Counted from the first letter of the stretch, positions 4,901-20,622 are shown. The stretch is DNA of 64,000 bases from an uncultured bacterium (GCA_963804975.1 CAWDSG010000002.1:277015-341014); one strand, 5' to 3'. Translations and numbers: made by a program. Notes: generated by a model from the sequence alone, not told the origin.

Positions 4901-7900
4901 GACAGTGGAACAATAATAATAGGTGGAAACACTTATGTTATTACAACACCAACACTGATAAGTTCACTTGTTCCAACAGTTGTGGTTACTCTTGCATCAA
5001 CCACACCTGTTTCAGGAAATATTACCGTAGGACAATCATCTGTTGATCTTGCAGAATTCACATTTACAAATAATTCTGCGACTTCCGGCGAGATAAACCA
5101 AATTACATTAACGAGAACGGGATCATCAACAGATACGACTTTATCGAATGTATATTTGTATCAAGGGTCAAATCAAATAGCGTCAGGAATATTATCATCG
5201 GGTCAAATTGTTTTCCTTAACAATTCAGGTTTATTTACGATTGCATCAAATACTTCGGTCACGGTGGCGATAAAAGCCGATGTTTCTCCATCTGCTAATG
5301 TTGGTAACACAATCGGATTTTCTCTCACTCAAATTACAGCGCATTCATTAGCGGTATCAGCAGTATTTCCATTAACAGGTTCTTTGATGACTGTTGTAGG
5401 AACAACTTCTGTTCCAGTAACATCTATCTTAGTTAATTGGACAAGTGAAGTAACAACAGTTGATGTTGGTTCAACTTTGCAAATGACCGCAACGGTAAAT
5501 CCATCAAACGCAACAAATAAAAATGTTATATGGTCTGTTGCAAACGGAACCGGATCAGCAACTATCGATTCGACAGGAGTTTTGACTGGCGTCGCAACCG
5601 GAACCGTTATGATTGCAGCTTCATCAACAGATGGCTCTGGTGTTTTTGGAACGACAACAATCACAGTTATCCCAAGCGGAAGTTTGGTACCTGTTATTAC
5701 AGTTATCGCGCCAAACCCATCACCAAACGATAATTCAGTATTATGGATTCACGGAGCTCATTTGGGATTTGCTACTTCTAGCTATACCGCTATCTTTTCT
5801 CAAAACAGCAGTGTTGTAGCAACGACATCTATATCATCTACAAATCCAAGCGGTTCAGATCTTGAAGCTAATTTTCCAATAGGTATTTCAGCCGGAGTTT
5901 ATCAGGTTTCTATTTCTGACCAATATGGTACAAGCAACTCTTTTGATCTTACTGTTACATCATCCGGAACAGTAATTCCAACATTATCAAGCATTACAAT
6001 CACCACTCCGGCAGACAAACTTATCTACACATTAGGCGATTCGCTTGATATCACAGGATTGGTAGTCACAGGAACATATTCGGACGGCTCCACTTCAACC
6101 GAGCCGCTCACTCTTGCCGACGTTTCCGGTTTCGATTCATCTGCCGCATCCTCAAGCGAAACATTAACGGTCACGTATCAAACACAGACAACTTCATACA
6201 ATGTTGCGATTAATCCAACTTTAATGCTCGATTCAATCGCCATCACGCATCCGGCAGACAAACTTATTTATACTGTCGGTGATTCACTTGATATCACAGG
6301 ACTAGTAGTTACAGGAACTTATTCAGACGGTTCAACATCGACTTTGCCGGTCTCAGTTTCAAATATTTTTGGATTTGATTCGTCAATACCAAATCCGAGT
6401 GAAACTTTGACAATTGCTTATGAAGGAAAATATGTAAGCTTGTTTGCTACAGCGACTTATACAATTACAATTAATGCCGGTCCAAGCGGTCCAATTGCGG
6501 TCACAGGAGTTACGGTTAGTCCGACGTCGCTTAATCTTACAGCAGGCGGAGCAACCGGAAATCTGACAGCAAGTGTTATTCCATCAAACGCAACCAATCA
6601 GAATATTTTCTGGAACACTGACAATGCGGAAGTTGCCACAGTTTCAAGCGGAGTAGTCACGCCGATTGCCGCGGGTATAGCAAATATTACAGTCACAACC
6701 GAAGACGGAAGTTTTGTTGCCACAAGCACAGTTACAGTTACAGCAACATCAACACCGCCTCCAACGTTACAAAGCATTGCTATCACTTCGCCTGCAACTA
6801 AACTTTCCTACAACATCGGAGACACTCTTGATATCACAGGACTTGCCGTCACCGGAACTTATTCCGACGGTTCAACTTCAATTGAACCGATCAGCGTTTC
6901 AAACATTTCGGGATTTGATTCTTCAGCTGCAAATCCAAATGAAGTTTTGACCGTTACAGTTAGTGGACTTACAACAAATTATACAGTCGTTATAAATGCA
7001 GGAAGTGTTTCAACTCCGGTCTTATCATCAATTTCCATTTCAGCTTCACCTCTCACTTTGGCAGTCGGTTCAACCACACAATTTACAGCAACAACACTGG
7101 ATCAGTTCGGTGATTCAATACAAGCGACGGTAAATTGGTCAAGCTCAGATACCTTAGTCGGTGATATAGATGCAAGCGGATTATTCACAGCTTCTGCAAC
7201 AGGAACAACTGTTGTTACAGGAACAGCTGGAACATATAGTGCAACTATTACAGTTACAGTATCTGATTTTTCAGACCAAACTCCGGTCCTTTCATCAATA
7301 AGTATTTCGGCTCCATCTTTAACATTAGCTGTCGGTTCAACCACACAATTTACAGCAACAACACTGGATCAGTTCGGTGATTCAATACAAGCGACGGTAA
7401 ATTGGTCAAGCTCAGATACCTTAGTCGGTGATATAGATGCAAGCGGATTATTCACAGCTTCTGCAACAGGAACAACTGTTGTCACAGGAACAGCTGGAGC
7501 AACAACAATATCAGCTACTGTAACAGTATCAGTAATTTCAACAGGAGGAGGTTCAACACCAGTTCCAACATTATCAAGTATTGCAATTACATCACCAGCA
7601 AACAAATTGTCATACAATATTAATGATAGTCTTGATATCACAGACCTTGTTGTCACCGGAACTTATTCCGACGGTTCAACTTCAATTGAACCGATCAGCG
7701 TTTCAAACATTTCGGGATTTGATTCTTCAACAACAACTCCAAGCGAAGTTTTGACAATTAATGTCAGCGGATTGACTACAACTTATACGATTACGGTAAA
7801 TGCCGGTCCAAGCGGTCCAATTGCGGTCACAGGAGTTACGGTTAGTCCGACGTCGCTTAATCTTACAGCAGGCGGAGCAACCGGAAATCTGACAGCAAGT

Positions 7901-8995
7901 GTTATTCCATCAAACGCAACCAATCAGAATATTTTCTGGAACACTGACAATGCGGAAGTTGCCACAGTTTCAAGCGGAGTAGTCACGCCGATTGCCGCAG
8001 GTACAGCGAATATCACAGTCACCACAGTTGATGGAGGATTTGTCGCCACAAGCACAGTCACGGTTTCCGGCGGCAGTTCAACAACCACACCGGTACTCAC
8101 TTCAATAACCATTTCACCTTTGAAGCCAACAATCGTTGCCGGAAATAAAAAAACCTTTACGGGAACTACGCTTGATCAGGACGGCAATCCGTTTGCAACA
8201 GCAATCGCATGGCAAAGTTCCAACACTTCAATCGGCACCATTAATTCAAGCGGAATATTTACAGCGGTTTCAGCGGGAACGACAACAATCACTGCGACTG
8301 CCGGGACACTCTCAGCATCAACAGTTGCAACAGTCACTTCAGCAAGAAATACAAACGGAGGTGGCGGCGCAACAAACAATACTCCTCCTACGATCGTGAT
8401 CATTGGCGATAATCCTGCCACAATCACAGTCGGTGGAACTTACATTGACGCAGGAGCAAATGCATTCGACAGCACAGACAACACAATCACTTCAAGAATA
8501 ATAACTTCAAATAATGTAAACACGGCGATGGCCGGAACATACACGGTGTATTATTCAGTGACCGATAGTTATGGAAATACAACAACAGCAACCCGTATGG
8601 TAAATGTCATTGGTTCAAATAATAACGGAACAAATACAAACAACACTGTAACTTCGGAGACGTCGCAAACTAATGGTGGCGAATCATCAAATTCTTCAGC
8701 AACATTACAAAATAATGGCGGAGGAACAGAAGTCACTTCAGGAACCGGAAACGGAACAATTCCATTCATTGATTTGGGAAATATACTTCCGTCAAAAGTT
8801 TCCACAACGACTTATGTTGCAACAAGCACTGCTTCATCGGGAGTCGCTCAGGTTTCAACCTCAACAAAAGCAGGTTTGCTTGCGGCAGTCGGCCTTGCGC
8901 TCTCAAGCATTCCTAAGAATCTGATTGCGATTATTCTCTCAATTCTTGTGCTGTTGATTGCAGGATATATAATCTACAAGATACAGGAAGATTAA
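1931..8995 (+). CDS. giant membrane-anchored surface protein (2354 aa): Gly-rich N-terminal region, multiple DUF5011-like Ig domains, Big_2 and Big_3-like Ig domains, FN3-like segment, beta-helix-like NST repeat region, C-terminal TM anchor
   Basis: N-terminal TM/signal (ITTIVLLTIVVSFGFVSFAHA). Repeated ILGxNPxTIxxGxxYxDAGATAxDxxDG...ATGTYxVxYxxxDxxGN units (DUF5011-like). Repeated ...LSSISISPL...TTLDQxGNPF...WxSSNTSVGTIDASGxFTA units (Big_2-like). Four Y..GDSLDITGL.VTGTYSDGSTS units. C-terminal hydrophobic anchor LIAIILSILVLLIAGYIIYKIQED. Start uncertain (alternative ATG at 1963). Confidence 0.8.
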   Translation: MCIRFLASKIIMFSHYQKISRFLGNITTIVLLTIVVSFGFVSFAHAATTTLSYTGDPIDSWTVPQGVTSLTVSLTAGGGGGAGGAFTFGGGGGGGAGASFSQTISVYPGQIIAYVVGAGGVGGTSGFINFAGGSGNDGGYTTFGTTTAFGGKGGQGATYGHPNGGQGGLAGGIGGNAGTKGDDYIGQRSCGGNGGSSLIGNAGLGGCGASGWSTLPTAGTNGAGGGAGSGWAYYEHPDIKDAGANGGNGLIVLSYTQDLVAPIITILGSNPLTLEASSTEIYIDAGATAFDDVDGTTTATTTFNNVNLAATGTYSVVYSATDKAGNTATSTRIVNVVDDIAPVITAPDTQVFEATGATTTPILIQAVATDGFDPNPVITYNPHDFTLGTTTVVWTATDSSGNSATTSSLVVIKDTTAPAIVLNGSSTMSLMIGDTYTELGATAYDLVDGTTIVNTIGTVDTNATGTYQILYTSSDNSGNTAITSRTVIVTATPDTTAPVITILGNNPETITLGSIYTDAGATALDNIDGDITSRIASSSDVNTSATGTYSVIYTVSDNAGNGATSTRIVDVVATAPILSSISISPLNPTLAVSATTTFVATTLDQYGNPFATTTAWNSSNTSVGTIDASGIFTALSEGTTTVTGTTGTLSTSTMVTVTPVSVLDTTAPTTPVITGVSATSTIVNPAIISWTDSTDSQSGLAGYLYEITIVHPSMIATTTGGLTFITATTTSFDLASITSGKPNPYWFNVAAIDNAGNISTTTSYGPLLVSDSQVLIENSNLGGTFYTIYSPTLVNSLLAPVATTTGTTTITNSTLSTFWDVNNSSITNTTINDVNLDAVTVTNSTLINSDIARCIVINSLVKNYYARDCHIAYSVLDPSTLYDFINSTSTNSQIYASDIYDSVISNHSYIATSTITGSTIDSSTITLSTIATSTITGSVIANSDITLSTITDSTVSSSTLTNVVSASSTITNTVLSDATTTNAVIHDGIIDSGTIIIGGNTYVITTPTLISSLVPTVVVTLASTTPVSGNITVGQSSVDLAEFTFTNNSATSGEINQITLTRTGSSTDTTLSNVYLYQGSNQIASGILSSGQIVFLNNSGLFTIASNTSVTVAIKADVSPSANVGNTIGFSLTQITAHSLAVSAVFPLTGSLMTVVGTTSVPVTSILVNWTSEVTTVDVGSTLQMTATVNPSNATNKNVIWSVANGTGSATIDSTGVLTGVATGTVMIAASSTDGSGVFGTTTITVIPSGSLVPVITVIAPNPSPNDNSVLWIHGAHLGFATSSYTAIFSQNSSVVATTSISSTNPSGSDLEANFPIGISAGVYQVSISDQYGTSNSFDLTVTSSGTVIPTLSSITITTPADKLIYTLGDSLDITGLVVTGTYSDGSTSTEPLTLADVSGFDSSAASSSETLTVTYQTQTTSYNVAINPTLMLDSIAITHPADKLIYTVGDSLDITGLVVTGTYSDGSTSTLPVSVSNIFGFDSSIPNPSETLTIAYEGKYVSLFATATYTITINAGPSGPIAVTGVTVSPTSLNLTAGGATGNLTASVIPSNATNQNIFWNTDNAEVATVSSGVVTPIAAGIANITVTTEDGSFVATSTVTVTATSTPPPTLQSIAITSPATKLSYNIGDTLDITGLAVTGTYSDGSTSIEPISVSNISGFDSSAANPNEVLTVTVSGLTTNYTVVINAGSVSTPVLSSISISASPLTLAVGSTTQFTATTLDQFGDSIQATVNWSSSDTLVGDIDASGLFTASATGTTVVTGTAGTYSATITVTVSDFSDQTPVLSSISISAPSLTLAVGSTTQFTATTLDQFGDSIQATVNWSSSDTLVGDIDASGLFTASATGTTVVTGTAGATTISATVTVSVISTGGGSTPVPTLSSIAITSPANKLSYNINDSLDITDLVVTGTYSDGSTSIEPISVSNISGFDSSTTTPSEVLTINVSGLTTTYTITVNAGPSGPIAVTGVTVSPTSLNLTAGGATGNLTASVIPSNATNQNIFWNTDNAEVATVSSGVVTPIAAGTANITVTTVDGGFVATSTVTVSGGSSTTTPVLTSITISPLKPTIVAGNKKTFTGTTLDQDGNPFATAIAWQSSNTSIGTINSSGIFTAVSAGTTTITATAGTLSASTVATVTSARNTNGGGGATNNTPPTIVIIGDNPATITVGGTYIDAGANAFDSTDNTITSRIITSNNVNTAMAGTYTVYYSVTDSYGNTTTATRMVNVIGSNNNGTNTNNTVTSETSQTNGGESSNSSATLQNNGGGTEVTSGTGNGTIPFIDLGNILPSKVSTTTYVATSTASSGVAQVSTSTKAGLLAAVGLALSSIPKNLIAIILSILVLLIAGYIIYKIQED
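6481..6672 (+). repeat. about 190-nt intragenic repeat, first copy (near-identical to 7807..7998)
   Basis: tccaagcggtccaattgcggtcacaggagttacggttagtccgacgtcgcttaatcttacagcaggcggagcaaccgg... repeated 1326 nt downstream. The two shadow ORFs 6598..6786(-) and 7924..8112(-) share an identical C-terminal stretch (...VVTVIFA.PAAIGVTTPLETVATSALSVFQKIF). Confidence 0.8.
7064..7507 (+). repeat. tandem duplication (2 x 267 nt) inside the giant gene
   Basis: gtcggttcaaccacacaatttacagcaacaacactggatcagttcggtgattcaatacaagcgacggtaaattggtcaagctcagatacc... occurs at 7064 and again at 7331. About 170 nt are near-identical with single-nucleotide differences. Shadow ORFs 7102..7344(-) and 7369..7656(-) translate identically. 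Confidence 0.8.
7807..7998 (+). repeat. second copy of the 6481..6672 intragenic repeat
   Basis: Near-identical nucleotide sequence; encodes AGPSGPIAVTGVTVSPTSLNLTAGGATGNLTASVIPSNATNQNIFWNTDNAEVATVSSGVVTPIAAG in both copies. Confidence 0.8.
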
Positions 8996-9004
8996 ATTTA
9001 AAAA

Positions 9005-9040
9005 CAAAAAACTGCCCGCCTCACGGCGGGCAGTTTTTTT
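9005..9040 (+). terminator. rho-independent terminator after the giant gene
   Basis: aaaaaaCTGCCCGCCtcacGGCGGGCAGttttttttatttg, followed by a second GC hairpin gcgggcttgcttcgcgcccgc. Confidence 0.7.
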
Positions 9041-9099: not shown

Positions 9100-9981
9100 T
9101 TGCTATCATTCTTCTTTATGGAAATCATTCCTCAACTCATCATGAACAGCATTATCGCCGGAGCGATCTATTCCATAATCGCTCTTGGTTTTAATCTTAT
9201 TTTCAGCACGGTTAAATTTTTTGATCTGGGATACGGGGCGCTTACAGCTGTCGGCGGCTATTCCGTTTTTTTTATTTTTGACAAACTTGGCCTCAATCTT
9301 TGGTTTGCAATAATTGTCGGCATCATAGTCGCTGGACTCATCGGATATCTCATCGACAAGCTCGTTTATAAAAAATTAAGGAAAAGGAAAGCATCGCCGA
9401 TGGTTTTTCTTGTCGCATCACTTGGAGTTTTCACTGTCATTCAAGCGCTTATAGCAATTCTTTTTTCTAGCCAGTTCCAGACATTAAGTCAAGGCAGCGG
9501 AAAAGTTTTCCAGATATTCGGAGCTACTATCACGGAAGTCCAGCTTATTATTTTTATCTGCGGACTTTTGATCATGGGAATTCTCGCAATTGTTTTAAAA
9601 ACCACGAGATTTGGAAAAGCCATAAGGGCGGTGAGCGATGATGAAGAAGTTTCAAAAATCGTCGGCATAAGCACGGACAAAATTATTGGAAAAGTTTTTT
9701 TCATCGGTTCTGCTATCGCTGGACTCTCGGGAATACTCATCGGCTTTGACACCGGAATTGAGCCCACAATGGGCTTTTCACTTCTTTTAAAGGGCGTTAT
9801 CGCTTCCATAATCGGCGGAATAGGGAATATCTACGGCGGAGTTCTGGGAGCTTTTCTTTTGGGTTTTGTGGAAAATTTCGGCATCTGGCAAATCTCCGGC
9901 GAGTGGAAAGATGCCATTGCTTTCGCGCTTCTGATTATCTTTTTACTGTTCAGGCCGAAGGGGATTTTTCCAAAGAAGTGA
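9100..9981 (+). CDS. livH: branched-chain amino acid ABC transporter permease (LivH family)
   Basis: Multi-TM protein; IIPQLIMNSIIAGAIYSIIALGFNLIFSTVKFFDLGYGALTAVGGY matches the LivH/BPD_transp_2 N-terminus. Alternative start ATG at 9118. Confidence 0.75.
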   Translation: MLSFFFMEIIPQLIMNSIIAGAIYSIIALGFNLIFSTVKFFDLGYGALTAVGGYSVFFIFDKLGLNLWFAIIVGIIVAGLIGYLIDKLVYKKLRKRKASPMVFLVASLGVFTVIQALIAILFSSQFQTLSQGSGKVFQIFGATITEVQLIIFICGLLIMGILAIVLKTTRFGKAIRAVSDDEEVSKIVGISTDKIIGKVFFIGSAIAGLSGILIGFDTGIEPTMGFSLLLKGVIASIIGGIGNIYGGVLGAFLLGFVENFGIWQISGEWKDAIAFALLIIFLLFRPKGIFPKK

Positions 9982-10082
9982 TTCAGAATATATCAACAAT
10001 ATAAGTTTGCGTTTGCTATAAAAAATGGTAGATTTTCAATATAAGTTTTAAGTTAAATATTATTAGTTCTAAATTAATTATT

Positions 10083-11216
10083 ATGGAACCAACAAAGAAA
10101 TCTATGAAATGGCTGTGGGGAATAGTTGTGATTATTGCCATTATTATTCTTGCGCTTGCTTCAAGCAAGCCAAAAGAAACAGGACCGATTAAAATTGGGT
10201 TTATTGCTCCTCTTACCGGAGATGCTGCTAGTTTAGGACAAAACTCTCGTGCTGCTGTTGAAATATCAGTAAAAGAAATAAATGATGCAGGAGGTATTAA
10301 TGGCCGTCCGCTTGAAATTATTTATGAAGATGGACAATGTTCAGGCAAGCCAGCATCTGATGCTGCCAACAAACTTATAAATATAGACAAAGTTCCCGTA
10401 ATTATTGGAGGTCTTTGTTCCGGAGAAACCTCTTCTTTCACTGATGCAGCAGAAAAATCAAAAACAGTAGTTCTTTCTTATTGTTCTTCAGCTCCAGCTT
10501 TAACTTTTGCAGGAGATTATATATTCAGAAATTATCCGTCAGATTCTTATCAAGGATCTTTTGCGGCTGATTATATTTATAATAAACTGGGCAAAAGAAA
10601 TGTTGCTGTTCTTTATGTAAATACTGACTACGGAGTTGGTATTAAAGATGTATTTGATAAAAAATTCAAGGAACTTGGTGGGAACCTTCTTGATGAGGAA
10701 AGTTTTAAACAAAACAGTTCGGATTTAAGAACAGAATTAACAAAAATTAAATCTGTCAAACCGGAACTAGTTTATTTTATTGGTTATACTGAAGAAACCA
10801 TACCTGGAATAAAACAAGCAAAAGATTTGGGAATTAATGTGCCGTATTTTGGAGCTGATGCATGGGGTGATTCAAAAATATGGAGTACTCTTGGCTCTTT
10901 GGCTGAAGGAGATATGTATACGATGGTTTATACTCCTTTAAACGATGCTTTCAAATCAAACATGCTGGCAAAAATTGGGAACAATGAAATCACGGTTTGT
11001 ACTCCGCAAGCATATGATGCTGTAAAAATTATAGCTCAAATTATTACAAAAGTAGGTACAAATTCGGAAGCAATAAAAAACGAGCTTTATAAAACAGAAT
11101 ACAAAGGTGGTGTGTCTGCTCCTGACATAAAATTTGATTCAAATGGAGATGTAAATATTCCTTATGTTCTTAAAACTGTTAAAGATGGAAAATTTGTTTT
11201 ACTTCAAAATATTTAA
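10083..11216 (+). CDS. Liv-type (Peripla_BP_6) ABC substrate-binding protein, paralog 1, N-terminally anchored
   Basis: N-terminal anchor/signal MEPTKKSMKWLWGIVVIIAIIILALASS, then IKIGFIAPLTGDAASLGQ...GGINGRPLEIIYEDGQC, typical of LivJ/LivK-family SBPs. Confidence 0.8.
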   Translation: MEPTKKSMKWLWGIVVIIAIIILALASSKPKETGPIKIGFIAPLTGDAASLGQNSRAAVEISVKEINDAGGINGRPLEIIYEDGQCSGKPASDAANKLINIDKVPVIIGGLCSGETSSFTDAAEKSKTVVLSYCSSAPALTFAGDYIFRNYPSDSYQGSFAADYIYNKLGKRNVAVLYVNTDYGVGIKDVFDKKFKELGGNLLDEESFKQNSSDLRTELTKIKSVKPELVYFIGYTEETIPGIKQAKDLGINVPYFGADAWGDSKIWSTLGSLAEGDMYTMVYTPLNDAFKSNMLAKIGNNEITVCTPQAYDAVKIIAQIITKVGTNSEAIKNELYKTEYKGGVSAPDIKFDSNGDVNIPYVLKTVKDGKFVLLQNI

Positions 11217-11245
11217 AATTTATTTATTAATTATTAATTAAAAAC

Positions 11246-12394
11246 ATGGAGCCAAATAAAAATTCAATGAAGTGGGTATGGACAGCGATTGTCATAGTAA
11301 TTGTCGTAATCATTATCGGTGTTTTTACATCCCAAAGTTCGGCAAAGACGGTAAAAATCGGCTTTATCAGTCCGATGAGCGGCCAATCTGCGGCATATGG
11401 AGAATATGCAAGAAGAGCTTTTGAAATCGGCTTGGACGATTGGAATTCAACACATACCTATAAAATGGAAGCGGTTTATGAGGATGGAAAATGCGCTCCG
11501 GCAGATGCCGCCACAGCTGCCAATAAATTGATAAATATAGATAAGGTAAATTTCATAATGACGTTTTGCACGGGGGAAACGAATGCTGTCGTGCCTATAA
11601 CCGAAAGTCATAAGGTTATTCTTTTGACTGCCGGAACCACTGCTCCGAATATCACAAAAGGCAAATATGTTTTCAGGAATATCGGTTCTGTGGGAAGCGG
11701 TCTGCCTAAACTGACGCAGATGGCCTATGACTTCAATAAAAAAATCGCTTTGATATCCGAGAATACCAACTACGCGATTTCATCGAAAGACGCGTTCAAA
11801 CAGCAATTTACTGCTCTTGGCGGAACGGTTGTATTTGATGAATCATTTGACTCAAAAAGTATGGATTTCAGGACAATCATTTCTAAATTAAAGAGTGCCG
11901 GTATTTCCTCTGTTTTTGTCGTTGTTCAAGCACTTGATAATTCTGGATTATTATTCAAGCAGATGAAAGAGCTAAATTATCATCCTCAAATTTTTTCTAC
12001 GGAAGCTGCAATTAGCGACAAATCTCTAGAAAAGTACATAACGGAAGGATATGAGAATATTATTGAAGGAGCAATTCTCATCACTCCTTACTTCGACAGG
12101 ACAAATTCAATAGCGGCTCACTTGTTAGGTGTGTATCAAGACAAATATCAATCAACAAAAGGCCCTATTCCTGAAGAATACCTAGCGACGCATTATGATG
12201 CTGTTTTTTTGCTCGGAGACGCTTCAATGAGTGTCGGGACAAATTCGGATTCAGTCAGGCAATATTTCCTGACAAAAATTAAAAATTGGCAGGGGGCAAT
12301 CGGCAGTTTCAGCTTTGATGCAACCGGCGATGCCGTAACAAGCGTAGTCGCCGAAACCGTTAAAGGCGGAAAAATTGTTCCCCTCACAAAATAA
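11246..12394 (+). CDS. Liv-type ABC substrate-binding protein, paralog 2
   Basis: Same architecture: TM anchor, KIGFISPMSGQSAAYGE...YEDGKCAPADAATAANKLINIDKV. Confidence 0.75.
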   Translation: MEPNKNSMKWVWTAIVIVIVVIIIGVFTSQSSAKTVKIGFISPMSGQSAAYGEYARRAFEIGLDDWNSTHTYKMEAVYEDGKCAPADAATAANKLINIDKVNFIMTFCTGETNAVVPITESHKVILLTAGTTAPNITKGKYVFRNIGSVGSGLPKLTQMAYDFNKKIALISENTNYAISSKDAFKQQFTALGGTVVFDESFDSKSMDFRTIISKLKSAGISSVFVVVQALDNSGLLFKQMKELNYHPQIFSTEAAISDKSLEKYITEGYENIIEGAILITPYFDRTNSIAAHLLGVYQDKYQSTKGPIPEEYLATHYDAVFLLGDASMSVGTNSDSVRQYFLTKIKNWQGAIGSFSFDATGDAVTSVVAETVKGGKIVPLTK

Positions 12395-12419
12395 TTATTA
12401 ATTATTAGTTTAAAATATT

Positions 12420-13550
12420 ATGGACCAAACAAAAAGCAATGCAGGGAAGTGGGTGTGGGGGATTATCATAATAATTATTTTGATTGTAATTTTTTCTCTA
12501 TCCGGTGGGAAAAAAGAAACCGGCCCGATAAAAATTGGGGTTATTACGCCTCTTTCTGGGGACACTGCTTTATATGGGGAGGTGGTAAGAAATAGCATTG
12601 AATTGGCAGTAAAAGACATAAATCTATCTGGCGGAATAAACGGCCGACAAATACAAACGATATACGAAGATAGCAAATGTTCGGGCAAGGAAGCTGCTAC
12701 CGCTGCACAAAAATTAGTTAATATAGATAAGGTTAAATATATCATTGGCGACTTTTGCAGTGGAGGAGTTCTTAGCGAAATTCCAATAACAGATCCGGCA
12801 AAAGTTTTTGTTATATCTCCTTCAGCATCAGCGCCTAAATTGTCAGGAATAAGCAAATATTTTGTCAGAAATTCTCCTAGCGATTCTATCACAGGAATTA
12901 TTCTTGCTGATTATCTTTTAAAAATGAAATATAAATCAGTAGCGATTATATCCGAGCAAACCGATTATGCTCAGGGTATAAGAGATGTATTTATAGCACA
13001 AGCTCAGAAAGATAATCTAACTGTCACAGCTAATGAAAATTTCGTCTCGGGAGTAACCGATTTTCGTTCTCAGCTTTCAAAGATAAAAATTCAAAATCCT
13101 GATGTATTATTTATTAATCCTCAGAGTCCGGTTAGCTTAGTGCAAATTGCCGAGCAAGCAAGGGTACTTGGCATTAAATCTCAATTTGTCGGGTCATTGG
13201 GCGGAACTGATCCAAATCTATATACAAAATACACTCAAGGTATGATTTTTGCCGATTTGACCGGTTTAACAGGTGATAAAGGCAAAGAATATATGAATAA
13301 GTATATTGCAGCGTATAATGTTGCTCCTAATATTCCGTTATATGATGGGGCAGCGTATGATGATGTTTACTTGATTACGCAAGCCATATCTTCTGTTGGA
13401 GATGATTCCACTAAAGTTGCGGAATATTTGCGAGCAATGCCTAGCTACACTGGCGTCCTTGGTACATATCACTTTGATAAAAATGGGGATCTCGTCGGAG
13501 CCGGTATAGTAATGCAAAAAGTATCTGGTAACAAGGTAATTGAATTATAA
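12420..13550 (+). CDS. Liv-type ABC substrate-binding protein, paralog 3 (closest to paralog 1)
   Basis: KETGPIKIGVITPLSGDTALYGE...GGINGRQIQTIYEDSKCSGK. Confidence 0.8.
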   Translation: MDQTKSNAGKWVWGIIIIIILIVIFSLSGGKKETGPIKIGVITPLSGDTALYGEVVRNSIELAVKDINLSGGINGRQIQTIYEDSKCSGKEAATAAQKLVNIDKVKYIIGDFCSGGVLSEIPITDPAKVFVISPSASAPKLSGISKYFVRNSPSDSITGIILADYLLKMKYKSVAIISEQTDYAQGIRDVFIAQAQKDNLTVTANENFVSGVTDFRSQLSKIKIQNPDVLFINPQSPVSLVQIAEQARVLGIKSQFVGSLGGTDPNLYTKYTQGMIFADLTGLTGDKGKEYMNKYIAAYNVAPNIPLYDGAAYDDVYLITQAISSVGDDSTKVAEYLRAMPSYTGVLGTYHFDKNGDLVGAGIVMQKVSGNKVIEL

Positions 13551-13636
13551 AAAATCAAAAACCTCTCAAAAAGAGGTTTTTGATTTGGTAATTTTATGAT
13601 AAAATATGAATTCAATATAAAATTTACACTGTAAAT

Positions 13637-14503
13637 ATGGATTATTTAATTCACCTTGCGATTCTGATAGGAATTTATGTAATACTCGGTATTTCGCTCA
13701 ACCTTGTCGTGGGTTATACCGGCCTGCTTTCTGTTACCCAAGCCGCTTTTTACGGAATCGGCGCTTACACCACGGCGATACTTCTGACGACTACAGGAAT
13801 GAATTTTTTCCTGTCGGTCATTGTCGGAATAATAATCACGGCGATTGCCAGCTTGCTTATCGGCTATGTCTTGTCCAAATTCAAAGACGATTATTATGCA
13901 CTCGGTTCCTTCGGTTTCAATATCATCGTTTACAGCATATTCTTAAATTGGCAAAGTTTTACCAGAGGTCCTCTCGGCATTCCGGGAATAAAAAGGCCGG
14001 AAATTTTCGGTTTCAGTTTCAATGAAAATATTTATTTTCTGATTCTCGTCGTTGTCATTGCGGTGATAATTTATTACATCGCAAAATTCCTAGTGAACTC
14101 GTCTTTCGGCAGAGTTTTGAAAACAATAAGGGAAGACGAAGAAGCGATTCAGGTTTTTGGATACAATACTTTGTTTTTCAAGCTGACTATCTTTGTCATC
14201 GGCGCCTGTATGGCAGCGGTTGCCGGTTCGCTTTTTGCCACATACATCACTTACATTGACCCGTCATCTTTTGCTTTAGCCGAATCAATCTTCATTCTTT
14301 CAATAATTATTTTGGGCGGACTTTCAAATAATAAAGGCGCTGTCATCGGGGCTGTTTTTCTGGTCCTATTGCCCGAAATCCTTCGATTTGTGGGCTTTTC
14401 TTCGGACATTGCAGCCCAAATGCGCCAGGTGACTTATGGCCTGATTTTGATATTATTAATGCTGTACAGGCCGCAAGGTTTGATAGGCGAGTATAAGATT
14501 TAG
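13637..14503 (+). CDS. livM: branched-chain amino acid ABC transporter permease (LivM family)
   Basis: Multi-TM protein; GYTGLLSVTQAAFYGIGAYTTAIL is characteristic of the LivM N-terminus. Confidence 0.75.
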   Translation: MDYLIHLAILIGIYVILGISLNLVVGYTGLLSVTQAAFYGIGAYTTAILLTTTGMNFFLSVIVGIIITAIASLLIGYVLSKFKDDYYALGSFGFNIIVYSIFLNWQSFTRGPLGIPGIKRPEIFGFSFNENIYFLILVVVIAVIIYYIAKFLVNSSFGRVLKTIREDEEAIQVFGYNTLFFKLTIFVIGACMAAVAGSLFATYITYIDPSSFALAESIFILSIIILGGLSNNKGAVIGAVFLVLLPEILRFVGFSSDIAAQMRQVTYGLILILLMLYRPQGLIGEYKI

Positions 14504-14540
14504 TTTAGTAAATTTATTAATTATTAATTTAAACTTTGAT

Positions 14541-15680
14541 ATGAAAAGCGTAAAAATTTGGTTCGGTGTAGTAATTGTAATCTTACTGGTTTTGTTAATT
14601 ATAACTCAAACAAAACAAAGCGCTTCGGACAAAACAATAAAAATCGGTTTCATAGGAGCTTTAAGCGGTAACGCATCGGCATTGGGTATTCCTCCCAAAC
14701 AAGCAATTGAAATTGCTGTTCAAGATATAAACGATAATGGCGGTATAGGCGGAAAAAAATTGGAAATTGTCTATGAAGATGGCAAATGCACCGCAAAAGA
14801 TGCTGTTTCCGCAATAAATAAACTAATTAATATAGATAATATAAATATAATTATCGGCGGACAATGCAGTTCTGAAACACTCGGAGCGGCACCTATTGCA
14901 GAATCAAACCATGTTCTTTTAATCTCTCCTATGGCAATGAGCCCGCAAATTACAGGGTCTGGAGATTTTATTTTTAGAACAGTTTATTCAGATCAATTAA
15001 CAGCAGAAAAGCTTGCGACATACGCAGTACAAAATCTTGGTGTTAAAAAAGTGGCTATGCTATTTGAAAAAACCGATTATTCACAGGACTATAAAAAGGC
15101 ATTCCTGAATAAATTCATTGCTCTTGGCGGAGAAGTCGTTTCAGAAGAAGATTATTCGTCAGATGTAACCGATTTAAAAACCGAAGTATCAAAAATAAAG
15201 GCGTCAAATCCGGACGCTGTTGTATTTGTGCCGCAAACCGAGGCCAAGGAAATACTAGGTTTGAATGTGCTAAACGAATTCACTCCAAAAATGAAAGTTT
15301 TATCAAGTATTGTTTTGGAGAAACAGTCGGTATTGGATTTGTCAAAAAATCTTAACCTTAATCTATATTATTCAATACCGGTTTATGACACAGGATCTGA
15401 TGCCGCCAAAAAACTTTTTAACGAATATACCGCAAAATACGGGAAGGTGGATGGAGTTCCGTTTCAAATGTTAAATTCTTATGACACCGTATATCTCTTG
15501 AAATATTTGGTTGAGAATAACGGAACTGATCCAATTAAACTTAAAAATTCTCTGTACAAAGTTAATGGATGGCAGGGAGCGTCAGGAGTATTTAGATTCG
15601 ATAAGAATGGAGACAGGATTTCAGACAACATCGTAATTAATGGCGTTAAAGACGGTAAAATTGTTAGTATAACGAAATAA
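14541..15680 (+). CDS. Liv-type ABC substrate-binding protein, paralog 4
   Basis: TM anchor plus IKIGFIGALSGNASALGIPPKQAIEIAVQDINDNGGIGGKKLEIVYEDGKC. Confidence 0.75.
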   Translation: MKSVKIWFGVVIVILLVLLIITQTKQSASDKTIKIGFIGALSGNASALGIPPKQAIEIAVQDINDNGGIGGKKLEIVYEDGKCTAKDAVSAINKLINIDNINIIIGGQCSSETLGAAPIAESNHVLLISPMAMSPQITGSGDFIFRTVYSDQLTAEKLATYAVQNLGVKKVAMLFEKTDYSQDYKKAFLNKFIALGGEVVSEEDYSSDVTDLKTEVSKIKASNPDAVVFVPQTEAKEILGLNVLNEFTPKMKVLSSIVLEKQSVLDLSKNLNLNLYYSIPVYDTGSDAAKKLFNEYTAKYGKVDGVPFQMLNSYDTVYLLKYLVENNGTDPIKLKNSLYKVNGWQGASGVFRFDKNGDRISDNIVINGVKDGKIVSITK

Positions 15681-15707
15681 ATCTGGCTTGCCAGTTGAAA
15701 TTAAATA

Positions 15708-16460
15708 ATGCAAGTCCTAAAAACCAAATCAATTACAAAACATTTTAGCGGGGTGCATGCCGTGGATAATCTTTCTATTTCTTTTGAAAGCGGGAAAATC
15801 ACCGGCATCATCGGGCCGAACGGCTCGGGCAAATCCACCTTGGTGAATTTATTTTCCGGAATCGTGCCTATCGATAGCGGAACGGTTGTTTTTGACAATG
15901 CAGAGGAATTAAAAAGCATAAAAACTTATGAAATAGCGGATTATGGAATCGTCAGGACTTTTCAGGAAGTCAGATTGTTTGAGCAGATTCCGGTTTTGGA
16001 TAATATTTTGGCGGTCATCACAAAAAGAAATGTCATCGGTTCTATTTTTGAAAAGCACAAGAAATTCCACTTGGACAGAGCGGAAAATGTGCTGAAAAGA
16101 GTCGGACTTTGGGAAAAAAGGCACGAACTGGCAAAAAATCTTTCTTACGGACAGAGAAAACTTTTGGAAATTGCCAGAGTTCTCGCAATGCTGAGCGGGG
16201 AAGGTGTGGAAGGGGAAATATTTTTGTTTGACGAGCCGTTTGCCGGACTATTCCAAGAAATGAAAGATGTCGTCCTCCAAATCATAAAAGAACTGAAAGA
16301 AAAAGGAAAAACCGTCGTTCTTATAGAACATAATATGGAAATCATCAGAAATATCTGCGACCATGTTTTTGTGCTGGATAGCGGTAAGCTATTGGCGCAA
16401 GGATCGCCCGATGAAGTCCTCTCAAAAAAAGAAGTTATTGAGGCGTATTTGGGGAAGTAA
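15708..16460 (+). CDS. livG: ABC transporter ATP-binding protein (LivG-like)
   Basis: Walker A GPNGSGKST, signature LSYGQRKLLEIARVL, Walker B IFLFDEPFAGL. Confidence 0.8.
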   Translation: MQVLKTKSITKHFSGVHAVDNLSISFESGKITGIIGPNGSGKSTLVNLFSGIVPIDSGTVVFDNAEELKSIKTYEIADYGIVRTFQEVRLFEQIPVLDNILAVITKRNVIGSIFEKHKKFHLDRAENVLKRVGLWEKRHELAKNLSYGQRKLLEIARVLAMLSGEGVEGEIFLFDEPFAGLFQEMKDVVLQIIKELKEKGKTVVLIEHNMEIIRNICDHVFVLDSGKLLAQGSPDEVLSKKEVIEAYLGK

Positions 16461-16495
16461 TTGACAAATAATTTAATAAACCATAATATAAAAAT

Positions 16496-17611
16496 ATGGA
16501 ACAAAATAATTTTTCGTTAAAAAATATCTGGGTCTGGATAGTTATTATATTGGTAATCGTTTTGATTCTGGTTTTCGGCAATAATGCAAATAAAAACGAA
16601 ATAAAAATCGGAATGATTTTACCGTTAACCGGGACAGCAGCTCAATATGGGGAACAGCTGAAAGATGGAGCACAGATTGCAGAAAGTGAATTAAAAAATA
16701 CCGGAGCTAATGTAAAAATTTTCTATGAAGATAGCGCAGCAGATCCGACAACAGGTCTTTCCGCTTACAGAAGATTGGTTGATGTAGATAAAGTTGATTA
16801 CATCGTTTCTGCCATGACTCGATCTACACTGCCTTTGCTTGATTCATTAAATAAGGACAAAATTCCCATGATAATGACTCTTGTCGCCGGAGATTGGGAT
16901 AAAACAAAAACTAAATATGCCTTGCGATTCTATCCTACAGCAAGACAATATGTCAGAGGAGATAATTCCGATAAAATTTTGAACGGACTGAAATCAGTCG
17001 GTGTTATAAATGTTAATGATGCGTACGGTCAATCTGTCGTAAAAGAAGTTCAGACTTTTGCAAAAGAAAAAGGCTTTACAGTCGGAATGGTAGAAAGCTA
17101 TTCGGCAAATAATACCGACTACCGTTCAAGTTTATTGAAATTAAAAAATAGCGGTGTGGATTCGATCTTGATGATATCTTCAAGCCCGGTTGAGCTATCC
17201 GGCATAGCAAAACAATATAAGGAATTGAATATCAAACAAAAGCTTTTTGATGCTTCAGTCGGCTTGTCCAATCCAATAATAAGAGAGCAAAATAAAGATA
17301 TTCTTGAGGGCGTAGTCACTAAAGCGACAAAAGCTGAATTAACCAATAAAGATAAATCAGCCCAAGATTTCTTTGATAAATATGAGAAACTATACAATAG
17401 CGAACCGTATTTTCCCGGAATATTTGGCTATGAATCCATAAGATTGATAAATGACTTTAATTCTCAAAATGGCTCTGATTTTGTTGAAAAAGCTTCCAAT
17501 TTGAAATCTATCTCAACAATAATGGGCGATATAAAGATCGACAATTACCAAGAAATAAATCCACCGATATATAATACTGTCATAAGAAATGGAGAGTTGG
17601 TGGAGTTCTAA
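16496..17611 (+). CDS. Liv-type ABC substrate-binding protein, paralog 5 (divergent)
   Basis: TM anchor plus IKIGMILPLTGTAAQYGEQLKDGAQIAESEL...KIFYEDSAADPTTG. Confidence 0.7.
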   Translation: MEQNNFSLKNIWVWIVIILVIVLILVFGNNANKNEIKIGMILPLTGTAAQYGEQLKDGAQIAESELKNTGANVKIFYEDSAADPTTGLSAYRRLVDVDKVDYIVSAMTRSTLPLLDSLNKDKIPMIMTLVAGDWDKTKTKYALRFYPTARQYVRGDNSDKILNGLKSVGVINVNDAYGQSVVKEVQTFAKEKGFTVGMVESYSANNTDYRSSLLKLKNSGVDSILMISSSPVELSGIAKQYKELNIKQKLFDASVGLSNPIIREQNKDILEGVVTKATKAELTNKDKSAQDFFDKYEKLYNSEPYFPGIFGYESIRLINDFNSQNGSDFVEKASNLKSISTIMGDIKIDNYQEINPPIYNTVIRNGELVEF

Positions 17612-17638
17612 AAGGATATAAAATTAATAATTTAAAAT

Positions 17639-18733
17639 ATGAAAAAAATTTTTACTTGGTTAGTTGGTATTATAGCTGTGATTATTATAATTTTGATTTT
17701 TCAGAATAATACGACAAATCAGTCGGAGATAAAGGTTGGTGTCATCGGTCATTTCAGCGGCAATTACGCAGATTATGGAGTACCGATGAAAAATTCTATA
17801 GAGCTAGCAGCAGACGCGATTAATAAAAGCGGAGGCATAAATAACAGAAAAGTCCAATTGTATATTGAAGATGATGCCAGCAGTGCGTCTACAGCCGCAA
17901 CGGCAATGAACAAATTGATTTCTGTTGACAAGGTAAATTATATTTTATCTGCACAAGCGAGTGCAATAACTGCTGCGATTACTCCCATTGCACAAAGCAA
18001 CAAACGAATCTTGATGATTACATTAGGTTCTGCTCCTGACCTGACGAAAGTCGGCAATTATATTTTCCGTTCTGTTCCGTCCGATAGCTATCAAGGAATA
18101 AAAATGGTTGATTTGATAAATAATGATTTGAAATCCAAAAAAGTTGCCGGTTTGTATATAAATGACACTTATGGCGCGGGAATCAGGGATATCATAAATG
18201 AAAATCAAAAAGTTGCTAATGCAGATACCGAGATGTTTGAATCGCAAGCTACTGACGTAAGAACTCAATTATTGAAAATCAAACAAAGCGGTGCCGATAC
18301 ATTGGTAATCGTCGCTCATACTGAATATCCTGCGATTTTTAAACAGATAAAAGAATTGAGTTTGAATGTAAAAATTATCGCTTCGGAAACATTCAAAGAC
18401 AAAAATATTTTAAAGCAATGCGGTTCTAATACAGAAGGAGCAATGGTTACATTTATGGCGGATCAGAAAGATTATGTTGACTTCAATGATAATTACCAAA
18501 AAATGTTTAATACGGCTCCGTCGGCGTATAGCATGTATGGTTATGACGGGTTTATTGCTTTGGCTAAGGCAATTGAAAATAGCGGAGATAATGTTGAGAA
18601 AGTTAAAAACAATTTATCCAAAGTGCAATTCAACGGAGCTAGCGGTAATGTCGGCTTTGACGAAAATAGGAATAGAACAGGAATCACATATTCTGTTTTT
18701 AAAGTTGTTAATGGAGAATTTGTAAGATTATAA
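17639..18733 (+). CDS. Liv-type ABC substrate-binding protein, paralog 6
   Basis: TM anchor plus IKVGVIGHFSGNYADYGVPMKNSIELAADAINKSGGINNRKVQLYIEDDASSAST. Confidence 0.7.
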   Translation: MKKIFTWLVGIIAVIIIILIFQNNTTNQSEIKVGVIGHFSGNYADYGVPMKNSIELAADAINKSGGINNRKVQLYIEDDASSASTAATAMNKLISVDKVNYILSAQASAITAAITPIAQSNKRILMITLGSAPDLTKVGNYIFRSVPSDSYQGIKMVDLINNDLKSKKVAGLYINDTYGAGIRDIINENQKVANADTEMFESQATDVRTQLLKIKQSGADTLVIVAHTEYPAIFKQIKELSLNVKIIASETFKDKNILKQCGSNTEGAMVTFMADQKDYVDFNDNYQKMFNTAPSAYSMYGYDGFIALAKAIENSGDNVEKVKNNLSKVQFNGASGNVGFDENRNRTGITYSVFKVVNGEFVRL

Positions 18734-18754
18734 TTTTGTGCAATAATAGCAAGA

Positions 18755-19480
18755 ATGAAACAGGAATTTTTGCTAGAAATAAAAGATATCCACGTTCACT
18801 ACGGCGGAGTCAAAGCTTTAGACGGAGTGGGGATTATGCTTGATGAAGGCGAGATCGTTGCGCTTATGGGTCCGAACGGCGCGGGAAAATCCACCATACT
18901 CAAGACAATTTTCGGCCTTGCTCCTATTTATAGCGGAAAAGTTCTCTGGCACGAGAAAGAAATAAATCCCATACCGTATGAAATGGTTGATCGAAGCGTT
19001 TCTTTTGTGCCTCAAGGAAGAAGAGTGTTCAAAAGTCTTACTGTTAAAGAAAATCTGGAAATCGGAGCATATTCCGTGCGCAAGGATGAAGTAAAAGAGA
19101 AATTGGAAGATGTTTTGGATATATTTCCTATGCTGAAAGAAAAGATAAACGAAAAATCAGGGCATTTATCGGGCGGTCAGCAGCAGATGCTTGCAATCGC
19201 AAGGGGACTGATGATAGACCCGAAAGTTTTGCTTTTGGACGAGCCGACCTTGGGGCTTTCGCCAAAAATCGTGAAAGAAGTTTTTGAAAAAATAAAAGAA
19301 ATAAACCAAAGGCACAAAACAGCGATACTTATCGTAGAGCACAATATAAAATCAGTTCTTGATATTGTTGATCGGGCTTATATTTTGGATAAAGGAAAAA
19401 TCGTGGCGGCCGATATTTCAAAAAATATTATCCATAGTGACATTTTAGAAAAGATTTTTACTGGCAAACCAATCAATTAA
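18755..19480 (+). CDS. livF: ABC transporter ATP-binding protein (LivF-like)
   Basis: Walker [10 protein letters not shown], signature [15 protein letters not shown], Walker [13 protein letters not shown]. Confidence 0.85.
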
Positions 19481-19523: not shown

Positions 19524-20622
19524 ATGTCATTATCAATTGGAATTGTCGGGCTTCCGAATGTTGGCAAGAGCACGCTGTTTAACGCTCTTACGAAAAAAGC
19601 GGTGGCTTGCGAGAATTATCCTTTTTGCACCATAGATCCGTCCGTGGGCGTTGTTGCCGTACCTGATGAAAGAATTTGGAAGCTTTCAAAATTTTCAAAA
19701 TCTGCGAAAACGATTCCGGCTGCGGTTGAGTTTGTTGATATCGCCGGACTTGTAAAAGGCGCGTCGGCAGGCGAGGGGCTTGGCAATCAATTTCTCACAA
19801 ATATCAGAGAGACCGATGCTATTGCCGAAGTCGTGAGAATTTTTGAGGATGAAAATATTATTCATGTTGCAAACAAAATAGATCCGCTCTCGGATATTGA
19901 AACCATAAATCTCGAGCTCGTTCTTGCCGACCTGCAGACGGTTTCAAAAAGAATTTCAAATTTAGGAAGCGAAATAAAAAGAGGAAATAAAAATGCTGTT
20001 ATAGAAAATAGCGGGCTTACAAAAATCAAGAACTGCCCTTGAGGCAGGGAAACTTGCGAGCACAGTTGTTTTGGAAGAAAAAGAATTGGTGGAAGTAAAA
20101 AAGCTTTGCCTTCTAACAATGAAGCCGATTCTTTATGTTCTAAACAAAAAAGCCGGAGGAAAAAATCTGGACGAAACAAAGGACGAAAAATTTCAAAAGC
20201 TTTTGAAATTTTTCGCCGACACACATTCTAAATATGTGATCGTAGATGCTGGAATTGAGCAGGAACTCAAAGATCTGGAAGGAACCGACAAAAAGGAAAT
20301 GCGGGAAGGGCTTGGTGTGAAGGACGACGGTATTGATAGTTTGATTAAAGCCGGGTACGATCTGCTCGGACTCATTACATTTCTTACGACAGGAGAAGAC
20401 GAAACTCGCGCCTGGACGATTAAAAAGGGTTGGACCGCACCAGAAGCCGGCACAGCTATTCACGGAGATTTCAAGGAGAAATTTGTCCGTGCAGAAGTAA
20501 TAGAATGGAATAAACTTTTAGAAGCTGGCTCATATGCAAACGCCCGTGAAAAAGGCCTGATACGGACGGAAGGAAAGGAATATATTGTAAAAGACGGCGA
20601 CGTGATTGAATTCAAGATATGA
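19524..20622 (+). pseudogene. ychF: ribosome-binding ATPase YchF (Obg-family GTPase), interrupted by a +1 frameshift near 20030-20042
   Basis: N-terminal [23 protein letters not shown]... in frame 0 ends at TGA 20040-20042. The C-terminal part ...[37 protein letters not shown]...TGEDETRAWTIKKGWTAPEAGTAIHGDF...EFKI continues in frame +1. The two pieces together give a full-length YchF. Confidence 0.7.

Follow-up and report, generated by a model that had tools for sequence, protein, structure and literature searches.

Why would a bacterium from a lineage held to be auxotrophic, with very small genomes and few transporters, keep six solute-binding proteins (SBPs) beside the genes for one ATP-binding cassette (ABC) importer? 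This question is raised by a ten-gene cluster in a 64,000-nucleotide stretch of DNA from an uncultured bacterium (GCA_963804975.1 CAWDSG010000002.1:277015-341014; hereafter the window, meaning the whole stretch), where genes for the permeases and ATPases of a Liv-like transporter alternate with genes for SBPs over ~10.4 kb of a ~606-kb contig, most of it devoted to receptor genes. Sequence comparisons place the host in the Patescibacteria/Parcubacteria of the candidate phyla radiation (CPR), close to metagenome-assembled genomes (MAGs) labeled Taylorbacteria. The cluster probably encodes a single importer of the HAAT family (TC 3.A.1.4) in which six receptors of differing specificity serve one translocator, an arrangement that looks like widened nutrient uptake rather than a new mechanism.

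A listing of open reading frames (ORFs) between window positions 7000 and 22000 contains ten consecutive plus-strand genes at 9100-19480, in the order livH, SBP1, SBP2, SBP3, livM, SBP4, livG, SBP5, SBP6, livF, and none of the ten has an internal stop codon (Table 1). This order and these positions agree with an earlier note on the same DNA, as do the short AT-rich spacers it described, which measure 21-101 nt at 3-33% GC, most genes lying 21-37 nt apart. The livH ORF (9100-9981) opens at a TTG, and since LivH of relatives begins MDIIPQL, the in-frame ATG at 9118 (MEIIPQL...) is probably the true start. The ATPase motifs are complete in translation, with Walker A GPNGSGKST, signature LSYGQ and Walker B LFDEP in livG, and Walker A, signature LSGGQ and Walker B LLDEP in livF. 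No further liv-type genes were found in the rest of the window, which holds one set of H, M, G and F genes.

The intactness of these genes bears on whether several of the SBP genes are pseudogenes in decay, a prospect that the earlier note had raised, or artefacts of the assembly. The neighboring ychF gene is frameshifted, so errors or decay do occur in this contig. However, the six SBP ORFs are full length, their products match Peripla_BP_6 (PF13458) nearly end to end (E 1e-38 to 1e-57), structure models of SBP4 and SBP5 are confident (see below), and the segment from livM to SBP4 has an identical copy in an independent Logan assembly. Because the ORFs are intact and fold confidence is high, decay or artefact is an extremely improbable explanation of this array.

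In Pfam, both permeases match BPD_transp_2 and both ATPases match ABC_tran, livG alone adding BCA_ABC_TP_C. When scores against NCBIfam equivalog models were compared with the curated cut-offs, the top models for each subunit were of the Liv and Urt types (LivH/UrtB for livH, LivM/UrtC for livM, UrtD/LivG for livG and UrtE/LivF for livF), and every score fell well under its cut-off. For the Liv models the scores were 134 vs 379 (LivH), 185 vs 366 (LivM), 180 vs 362 (LivG), 203 vs 441 (LivF) and, for the SBPs against the LivJ/K model, 86-156 vs 477; for the Urt models they were 135 vs 250 (UrtB), 199 vs 304 (UrtD), 230 vs 286 (UrtE) and 23-79 vs 493 (UrtA). Since all scores lie below the curated cut-offs, the subunits are assigned to the HAAT family but not as equivalogs of E. 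coli Liv or Urt. The locus has the hallmarks of that family, namely a BPD_transp_2 permease pair, two ATPases with intact motifs and type I (cluster B) SBPs.

The six SBPs are only distantly related to each other, with pairwise identities of 22-38%. SBP1 and SBP3, previously called close paralogs, are indeed the top pair, but at 37-38% identity that term overstates their relationship; SBP5 is the most divergent, sharing 22-27% identity with the other five and lacking the LCS motif. All six are single-domain proteins of ~365-380 aa to which Pfam assigns no added signaling domain, and each begins with a short charged stretch, ~17-20 hydrophobic residues and a linker of 7-12 residues that leads into the first beta-strand (IKIG). 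The earlier description of six divergent, anchored-type Peripla_BP_6 proteins therefore holds: all are full length and intact, and each has an N-terminal hydrophobic helix. Cysteine is absent from the first 80 residues of all six, as is the lipobox [LVI][ASTG][GAS]C, and because there is no N-terminal Cys none is predicted to be a lipoprotein. Among 295 related SBPs, 282 have an N-terminal hydrophobic stretch and one has a lipobox-like motif.

Structural comparisons are consistent with a receptor fold. AlphaFold (AF2) models were built for SBP4 and SBP5, the two least LivJ-like of the six, and reached pLDDT (predicted local distance difference test) values of 95.5 and 92.3, respectively; both show an N-terminal helix followed by the full two-lobe type I binding-protein fold. 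Foldseek ranked TM1135 LivK of Thermotoga, a Brucella Leu-binder and S. pneumoniae LivJ highest for SBP4, at a template modeling (TM) score of ~0.8. For SBP5, amino-acid binders and R. palustris aromatic-acid binders scored equally (TM ~0.8), and no ligand class was called from this tie. By sequence, the best Protein Data Bank (PDB) matches are 4n0q (an L-Leu complex), 4gnr, 3td9 and LivJ for SBP1, 3td9 for SBP2, E. coli LivJ (1z15, E 4.6e-35) for SBP3, the R. palustris binder 3sg0 for SBP5, and 4gnr, 4n0q and Atu2422 for SBP6. Thus, among solved proteins SBP1, 2, 3, 4 and 6 come closest in sequence to amino-acid binders and SBP5 to an R. palustris binder; a urea or amide binder is the nearest PDB match of none of them.

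If the six proteins share a fold, do they also share a ligand? Pocket positions were taken from a 122-sequence profile alignment that includes E. coli LivJ, with SBP3 rechecked by direct pairwise alignment; a 296-sequence FFT (fast Fourier transform) alignment was dropped for the C-lobe, where it misaligned positions 202 and 226. In the profile alignment, the six SBPs present six distinct residue combinations at LivJ positions 18/77/79/100-102/202/226, and Y150 is invariant (Table 1). LivJ residues S79, T102, Y150, Y202 and E226 are those that we take, from the LivJ/LivK structure papers, to recognize the alpha-amino acid. The full recognition set is kept by SBP1 only (S, S, Y, Y, D), as in S. 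pneumoniae LivJ; as aligned at 20-30% identity, SBP2 and SBP6 lack Y202, and SBP3, SBP4 and SBP5 lack the equivalents of both Y202 and E226. SBP3 thus departs from LivJ at positions 202 (Q) and 226 (L), although its overall match to E. coli LivJ is the best.

Because the six pocket signatures differ, they argue for SBPs of different specificity rather than for redundancy. SBP1 looks like a true amino-acid binder, and the residues that recognize an alpha-amino acid are retained in part by SBP2 and SBP6. In LivJ an acidic residue pairs with the alpha-ammonium group; SBP3, SBP4 and SBP5 lack it and may for that reason bind other small acids or hold amino acids in a different mode. For SBP5, no ligand was inferred from the R. 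palustris binders because identity to them is only ~20%. The Cys53/Cys78 pair of LivJ is kept in SBP1-4, and both cysteines are gone together in SBP5 and SBP6. A DsbA/Thioredoxin_4-type protein of 256 aa is encoded on the minus strand at window 57047-57817; it fits with extracytoplasmic disulfide formation and folding and would suit the Cys pair in SBP1-4.

Is this array peculiar to one genome? When one genome per GTDB species was scanned with LivM, 143 relatives were returned, of which the best 80 loci were analyzed within flanks of 10 kb on either side of livM, so larger arrays are counted only in part. These loci are MAG contigs with uneven labels, their ORFs were called mechanically and annotated with the window's ten proteins, and the identity thresholds used below for orthologues are heuristic. 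All of the best 80 loci come from Patescibacteria/Parcubacteria MAGs (LivM identity 67-80%), labeled Taylorbacteria, Nomurabacteria, Kaiserbacteria, Wolfebacteria, Paceibacterota and, in several cases, automatically as 'Saccharibacteria'. The four core genes are present together in 43 loci (42 relatives plus the window), in the order H<M<G<F in all 43, and SBP genes lie between H and F in 33 of these complete loci (median 2, range 0-7). The total number of SBPs per locus ranges from 0 to 11 within the flanks, and joining two loci that lie on one contig (L023 and L082) yields s-H-s-M-s-(TrmB)-sss-G-(TrmB)-s-(HTH)-sssss-F, where s is an SBP gene and HTH a helix-turn-helix gene, or 12 SBPs. Matches to LivM that seemed unusually long (1234-1280 nt; L016, L070 and others) were rejected as insertions or inteins, because there the tblastn match runs on into the C-terminus of LivH, a paralogue.

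Six interleaved SBPs therefore fall in the upper part of the range and yet are a trait of the lineage. The earlier note had presented this number as a departure from the liv norm, which is correct relative to E. coli but not within the lineage, where relatives have up to 11-12. What sets the window apart is the presence of three SBPs in the H-M slot, which is used in 4 of the 43 loci, and of none upstream of livH. Relatives in the Peregrinibacteria and Peribacteria have ordinary clusters with one or two SBPs.

The proteins of these loci differ greatly in conservation. Median identity of the window's core proteins to their counterparts is 70% for LivH, 75% for LivM, 62% for LivG and 64% for LivF. 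For the six SBPs, the per-locus best matches across 80 loci have medians of 26-33% and maxima of 64% for SBP1, 58% for SBP3 and at most 38% for the other four, with no SBP2 counterpart above 37%. The SBP1 orthologue (64%, in L012) and the SBP3 orthologue (58%, in L009) are found upstream of livH, and their counterparts in the window lie downstream of it. An SBP5 orthologue (64%) occupies the same G-F slot in L082 and is the sole orthologue of a window SBP among the 12 SBPs of that genome. In a collection of 5.8 billion proteins, SBP5 has ~8 relatives at 47-64% identity and SBP4 has one at 61%, the rest being at or below 43%.

Such differences could reflect fast evolution of receptors, and L012, the only locus that also has ychF downstream (63-77% identity), allows a comparison. 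Its SBP1 orthologue is 64% identical, near the 67-77% of its core proteins, and the window's other five SBPs reach at most 36% identity to any of the six in L012. Because one receptor evolves near the pace of the core and the other five have no counterpart, the differences between SBP sets are not the mere product of fast evolution. (ClpB was considered as a divergence baseline against L082 and dropped, the gene at window 53173-55845 not being ClpB; ychF in L012 was used instead.) Across complete loci, an SBP finds a partner at 50% identity or above in another locus in a mean of 5% of cases per locus, and of the window's six no more than one is matched at this level by any other locus. The 295 SBPs of the 81 loci form 73 single-linkage clusters at 40% identity.

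The origin of the arrays can be approached by asking where the closest relative of each SBP resides. For 294 of the 295 SBPs the best match is in a different genome; the sole exception, SBP6, has a 34% match to SBP1 that is nearly tied with a foreign one. SBP pairs that reside in the same locus have a median identity of 26% (90th percentile 32%, maximum 53%), and orthologous pairs of at least 60% identity occupy the same slot in 88% of cases, compared with 33% for non-orthologous pairs. Because orthologues keep their slot, best matches lie in other genomes and co-resident identity is low, the arrays are interpreted as old sets of paralogues that were inherited with their position and then eroded or reshuffled by differential retention, loss or exchange. 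The pattern fits an ancient burst of duplication in a Parcubacteria ancestor, after which losses differed between lineages and lateral exchange may or may not have contributed.

The same data address the earlier proposal of serial duplication in place, considered here in the form that the six SBPs are recent tandem copies, largely redundant or newly diverging. It is true that the six genes are co-oriented members of a single family with motifs in common, that a 58-nt stretch near the beginning of the mature domain is 81% identical at the nucleotide level between SBP1 (10172-10229) and SBP3 (12512-12569), and that a 27-nt element is common to the spacers upstream of SBP2, SBP3 and SBP4. However, the proteins are only 22-38% identical, their pocket residues differ across all six, and SBP1, SBP3 and SBP5 have orthologues in other genomes at 64%, 58% and 64% identity, compared with 37% between SBP1 and SBP3. 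Given that nearly all best matches are foreign and that identity within a locus does not exceed 53%, duplication in place finds no support as a recent event, and we regard it as very unlikely. The 58-nt stretch, which encodes KETGPIKIG...PLTGD, could result from strong selective constraint where it encodes the first beta-strand and loop, or from gene conversion over a short tract.

Many related loci also contain regulatory genes. TrmB-family winged helix-turn-helix genes (~259 aa) number 105 in 44 of the 81 loci; 93 of them have the opposite orientation, and 89 form a divergent pair with one SBP gene that lies no more than 400 nt away (examples in Table 1). Pfam (PF01978) matches only the N-terminal ~70 aa of these proteins, the remaining C-terminal part being ~180 aa. 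This pairing suggests that receptors are induced one by one in the relatives that have TrmB-like genes. There is no TrmB-like regulator in the 64-kb window and no regulator gene inside its cluster.

From these observations a working model can be proposed. Each SBP would be exported through its own N-terminal hydrophobic segment and would either stay in place by a signal anchor or be freed by signal peptidase I. Each would then capture its own ligand and hand it to the single shared LivH/LivM plus LivG/LivF translocator, such that one motor could import several solute classes. In genomic terms, the layout extends across the lineage: a slowly evolving H-M-G-F scaffold offers insertion slots (before H, H-M, M-G and G-F) that hold anciently diverged SBP paralogues, and the paralogues that fill these slots differ from genome to genome. 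We infer a shared translocator because the SBP genes are embedded in the single H/M/G/F set of the window and because BraC3 of R. leguminosarum offers a precedent. The earlier suggestion of broad scavenging by an auxotroph is a sensible reading of a Patescibacteria host with six pocket signatures, in which the ligand classes and the sharing of a translocator are the conjectural parts. Anchoring and co-transcription are likewise proposals, whereas the genes and their soundness, the fold, the variety of pockets and the pattern among relatives were observed directly.

Several points count against this model. The tally of one translocator covers 64 kb of the ~606-kb contig (~10%), and a second may be encoded elsewhere; the pocket comparison rests on alignments of 20-30% identity to LivJ and on residue roles taken from the LivJ/LivK structure papers; the hairpin that follows SBP3 may split the cluster into two transcription units; and SBP5 has a weak Pfam match to LppC (25.9 bits, cut-off 28.8).

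The last of these points touches on function, in that some of the SBPs could be surface sensors, partners of regulators, LppC/LpoA-type activators of penicillin-binding proteins or host-attachment proteins instead of transport receptors. Type I periplasmic-binding-protein folds are reused as sensors and in LpoA, SBP3, SBP4 and SBP5 lack an E226 equivalent, and relatives, though not the window, have single SBP genes that diverge from a gene for a TrmB-like regulator. Against such roles, the six proteins have the single-domain form and length of typical ABC receptors, without a signaling domain; their genes are embedded among translocator genes, with orthologues that are faithful to their slots; and divergent pairing with a regulator fits substrate-specific induction of a receptor at least equally well. 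We therefore consider non-transport roles for some of the six to be unlikely.

The limited view of the contig raises a different alternative, in which the SBPs serve two or more translocators encoded elsewhere and their position in the cluster is incidental. Orphan SBPs with distant translocators are known, BraC3 being an example, and one fetched locus has an SBP array and no recognizable BPD_transp_2 permease within 10 kb on either side. This array (L086:7017-17908; JAHWIP010000011.1, labeled Woesearchaeota archaeon) has six Peripla_BP_6 genes, one of which (15755-17908) encodes a tandem double-SBP fusion of 717 aa, with interspersed ORFs that have no Pfam match, and it could represent a CPR-DPANN transfer or a binning error. 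However, the window contains a single H/M/G/F set, CPR genomes are very small and have few transporters, and SBP genes are likewise embedded within the core gene set in 33 of 43 complete loci. Service to distant translocators is thus quite improbable, and six receptors on one translocator remains our preferred reading of the cluster.

A more far-reaching proposal can be built on it. The Parcubacteria/Paceibacteria liv locus might be a conserved docking platform with a cassette-like, genome-specific array of receptors (reaching 12 SBPs or more), many of them with a divergent TrmB-like regulator of their own; its translocator might be the cell's general-purpose importer of chemically diverse metabolites, not only amino acids; and these symbionts with minimal genomes might adapt to a host or niche in large part through gain, loss or exchange of modules made up of an SBP and its regulator. 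We offer this extension tentatively and hold it to be rather doubtful as a whole.

Sequence features around and within the cluster provide some indications of how it is expressed (Table 1). The hairpin upstream of livH looks like an intrinsic terminator that closes the preceding gene, from which it follows that the liv cluster would open a new transcription unit. Co-transcription of the cluster is plausible because most of its genes are so closely spaced, and the layout is compatible with it. The hairpin between SBP3 and livM is strong (-18.2 kcal/mol, z = -5.8; 0 of 200 shuffled sequences fold as well) and has no clear T-run after it on the plus strand; it could be an attenuator within the cluster or an element that stabilizes mRNA. 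Folding of the 101-nt spacer between livH and SBP1 is not significant (z = +0.7), sigma-70-like sites show no enrichment (38 compared with 36 expected), and an Rfam scan of the whole window gave no match at gathering thresholds. A Shine-Dalgarno-like motif precedes 5 of 40 window genes, AT-rich leaders being the norm, and translation initiation in this genome appears to be largely independent of such motifs.

The 27-nt element lies 22-27 nt upstream of the start codons of SBP2, SBP3 and SBP4. Its core 13-mer has three exact copies in the window, all at these sites, compared with 0.56 matches expected when up to one mismatch is allowed. Neither the 13-mer nor the 27-nt element was found in the fetched related loci, L001, which carries the 13-mer, being an independent assembly of the same region; because of this absence, the 13-mer was dropped as a clade-wide recombination site.

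Table 1. Coordinates of the features discussed, with the residues of each SBP at seven LivJ pocket positions. Positions are those of the window unless a related locus is named.
Feature	Position	Strand	Match or description	Residues at LivJ Y18, L77, S79, T102, Y150, Y202, E226
GC-rich hairpin with T-run	9006..9039	+	15-bp stem, 8 GC pairs	
livH-type permease	9118..9981	+	Pfam BPD_transp_2 (PF02653), E 1.8e-44; median 70% identity to related-locus orthologues	
SBP1	10083..11216	+	Peripla_BP_6, E 1.4e-57	L, L, S, S, Y, Y, D
SBP2	11246..12394	+	Peripla_BP_6, E 1.1e-38	Y, F, T, T, Y, Q, E
SBP3	12420..13550	+	Peripla_BP_6, E 8.6e-54	Y, F, S, S, Y, Q, L
Perfect 15-bp hairpin	13552..13586	+	directly after SBP3 stop codon, before livM	
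livM-type permease	13637..14503	+	BPD_transp_2, E 5.6e-45; LivM is best NCBIfam model	
SBP4	14541..15680	+	Peripla_BP_6, E 1.9e-53	L, Q, S, M, Y, Q, I
livG-type ATPase	15708..16460	+	ABC_tran and BCA_ABC_TP_C (PF12399)	
SBP5	16496..17611	+	Peripla_BP_6, E 2.2e-43	Y, M, R/S, A, Y, S, S
SBP6	17639..18733	+	Peripla_BP_6, E 4.8e-52	Y, Q, S, S, Y, H, E
livF-type ATPase	18755..19480	+	ABC_tran, E 6.4e-35	
27-nt AT-rich spacer element	11221-11247, 12392-12418, 14511-14537	+	core 13-mer TTATTAATTATTA; 81-85% identity	
TrmB-like gene (example)	L003:13778-14554	-		
TrmB-like gene (example)	L015:11583-12335	-		
TrmB-like gene (example)	L082:665-1489	-		
TrmB-like gene (example)	L082:5917-6678	-		

The genes on either side of the cluster deserve brief mention. 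Directly upstream, at window 1931-8995, is a gene for a putative giant surface protein of 2354 aa, which is rich in Thr, Ser and Gly, has numerous internal repeats, and bears a hydrophobic segment at its N-terminus and a transmembrane segment at its C-terminus. Downstream of livF, ychF (19524-20622) is broken by a +1 frameshift near 20040 into one ORF for the GTPase domain (19524-20042) and another for the YchF C-terminal domain (20071-20622). This split is either an assembly error or a pseudogene; recoding of a stop codon was rejected as its cause, there being a +1 frameshift and no in-frame TGA read-through.

What an organism of the CPR can import largely defines its dependence on hosts or community. 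A conserved motor with genome-specific receptors would make the SBP array a candidate marker of niche and substrate range, and the arrays provide tractable soluble proteins for ligand screening in organisms that are not culturable. If our reading is true, receptor sharing in the HAAT family would be extended from two SBPs to 6-12, and one would have to ask how receptors with no more than 22-38% identity can all dock on the same pair of permeases. A full-text literature search, of incomplete coverage such that an earlier description is possible, found no description of multi-SBP liv arrays in the CPR; a paper on horizontal gene transfer in Patescibacteria treats a different ABC gene, COG1131 (PMC12455944).

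Comparison with known systems indicates what is ordinary about this locus and what is not. Multi-receptor ABC importers are textbook knowledge, and in E. coli Liv more than one SBP feeds one translocator. Like LivJ/LivK-LivHMGF of E. coli, the window combines a pair of BPD_transp_2 permeases and a pair of ATPases with type I Peripla_BP_6 receptors; the recognition residues of LivJ are retained in SBP1, and SBP3 has LivJ as its best PDB match. However, the two E. coli SBPs are close paralogues, periplasmic and encoded upstream of the permease genes, whereas the window has six of 22-38% identity, interleaved with the core genes, in a bacterium without a known outer membrane and with scores below the equivalog cut-offs. 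S. pneumoniae LivJHMGF is a monoderm HAAT system, and its receptor (4gnr) is among the top sequence or structure matches of SBP1, 2, 4, 5 and 6. That system has a single SBP that is lipid-anchored via a lipobox, in contrast to the window SBPs, which lack one. The R. palustris aromatic-acid binders (3sg0, 4dqd, 4evs, 4ey3) share the fold and family and show that HAAT SBPs can bind carboxylates other than amino acids, but they typically occur as one SBP per transporter cluster and are ~20% identical to SBP5.

Receptor multiplication has parallels elsewhere. Borrelia burgdorferi, a small-genome auxotroph, has OppA1-5 with a single OppBCDF and so broadens its uptake by multiplying receptors on one ABC translocator, as is proposed for the window's host. 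It differs in that the system is of the peptide/Opp family, with cluster C lipoprotein SBPs whose genes are in tandem upstream or on plasmids and not between core genes. Within the HAAT family, the direct precedent for receptor sharing is R. leguminosarum, where experiments showed that the orphan BraC3 works with the BraDEFG core as a second SBP of different specificity (PMC2978685). Unlike the window, that system has two SBPs, one of them unlinked, with no interleaving, in a free-living or symbiotic proteobacterium with a large genome. The components of the Parcubacteria locus are ordinary family members and its mechanism is conventional. It is set apart by the scale of 6-12 receptors, by a conserved scaffold in which receptor genes sit between those for permeases and ATPases, by the near-complete genome-specificity of receptor sets across a CPR class, and by the TrmB-like regulators with which receptors are paired in relatives.

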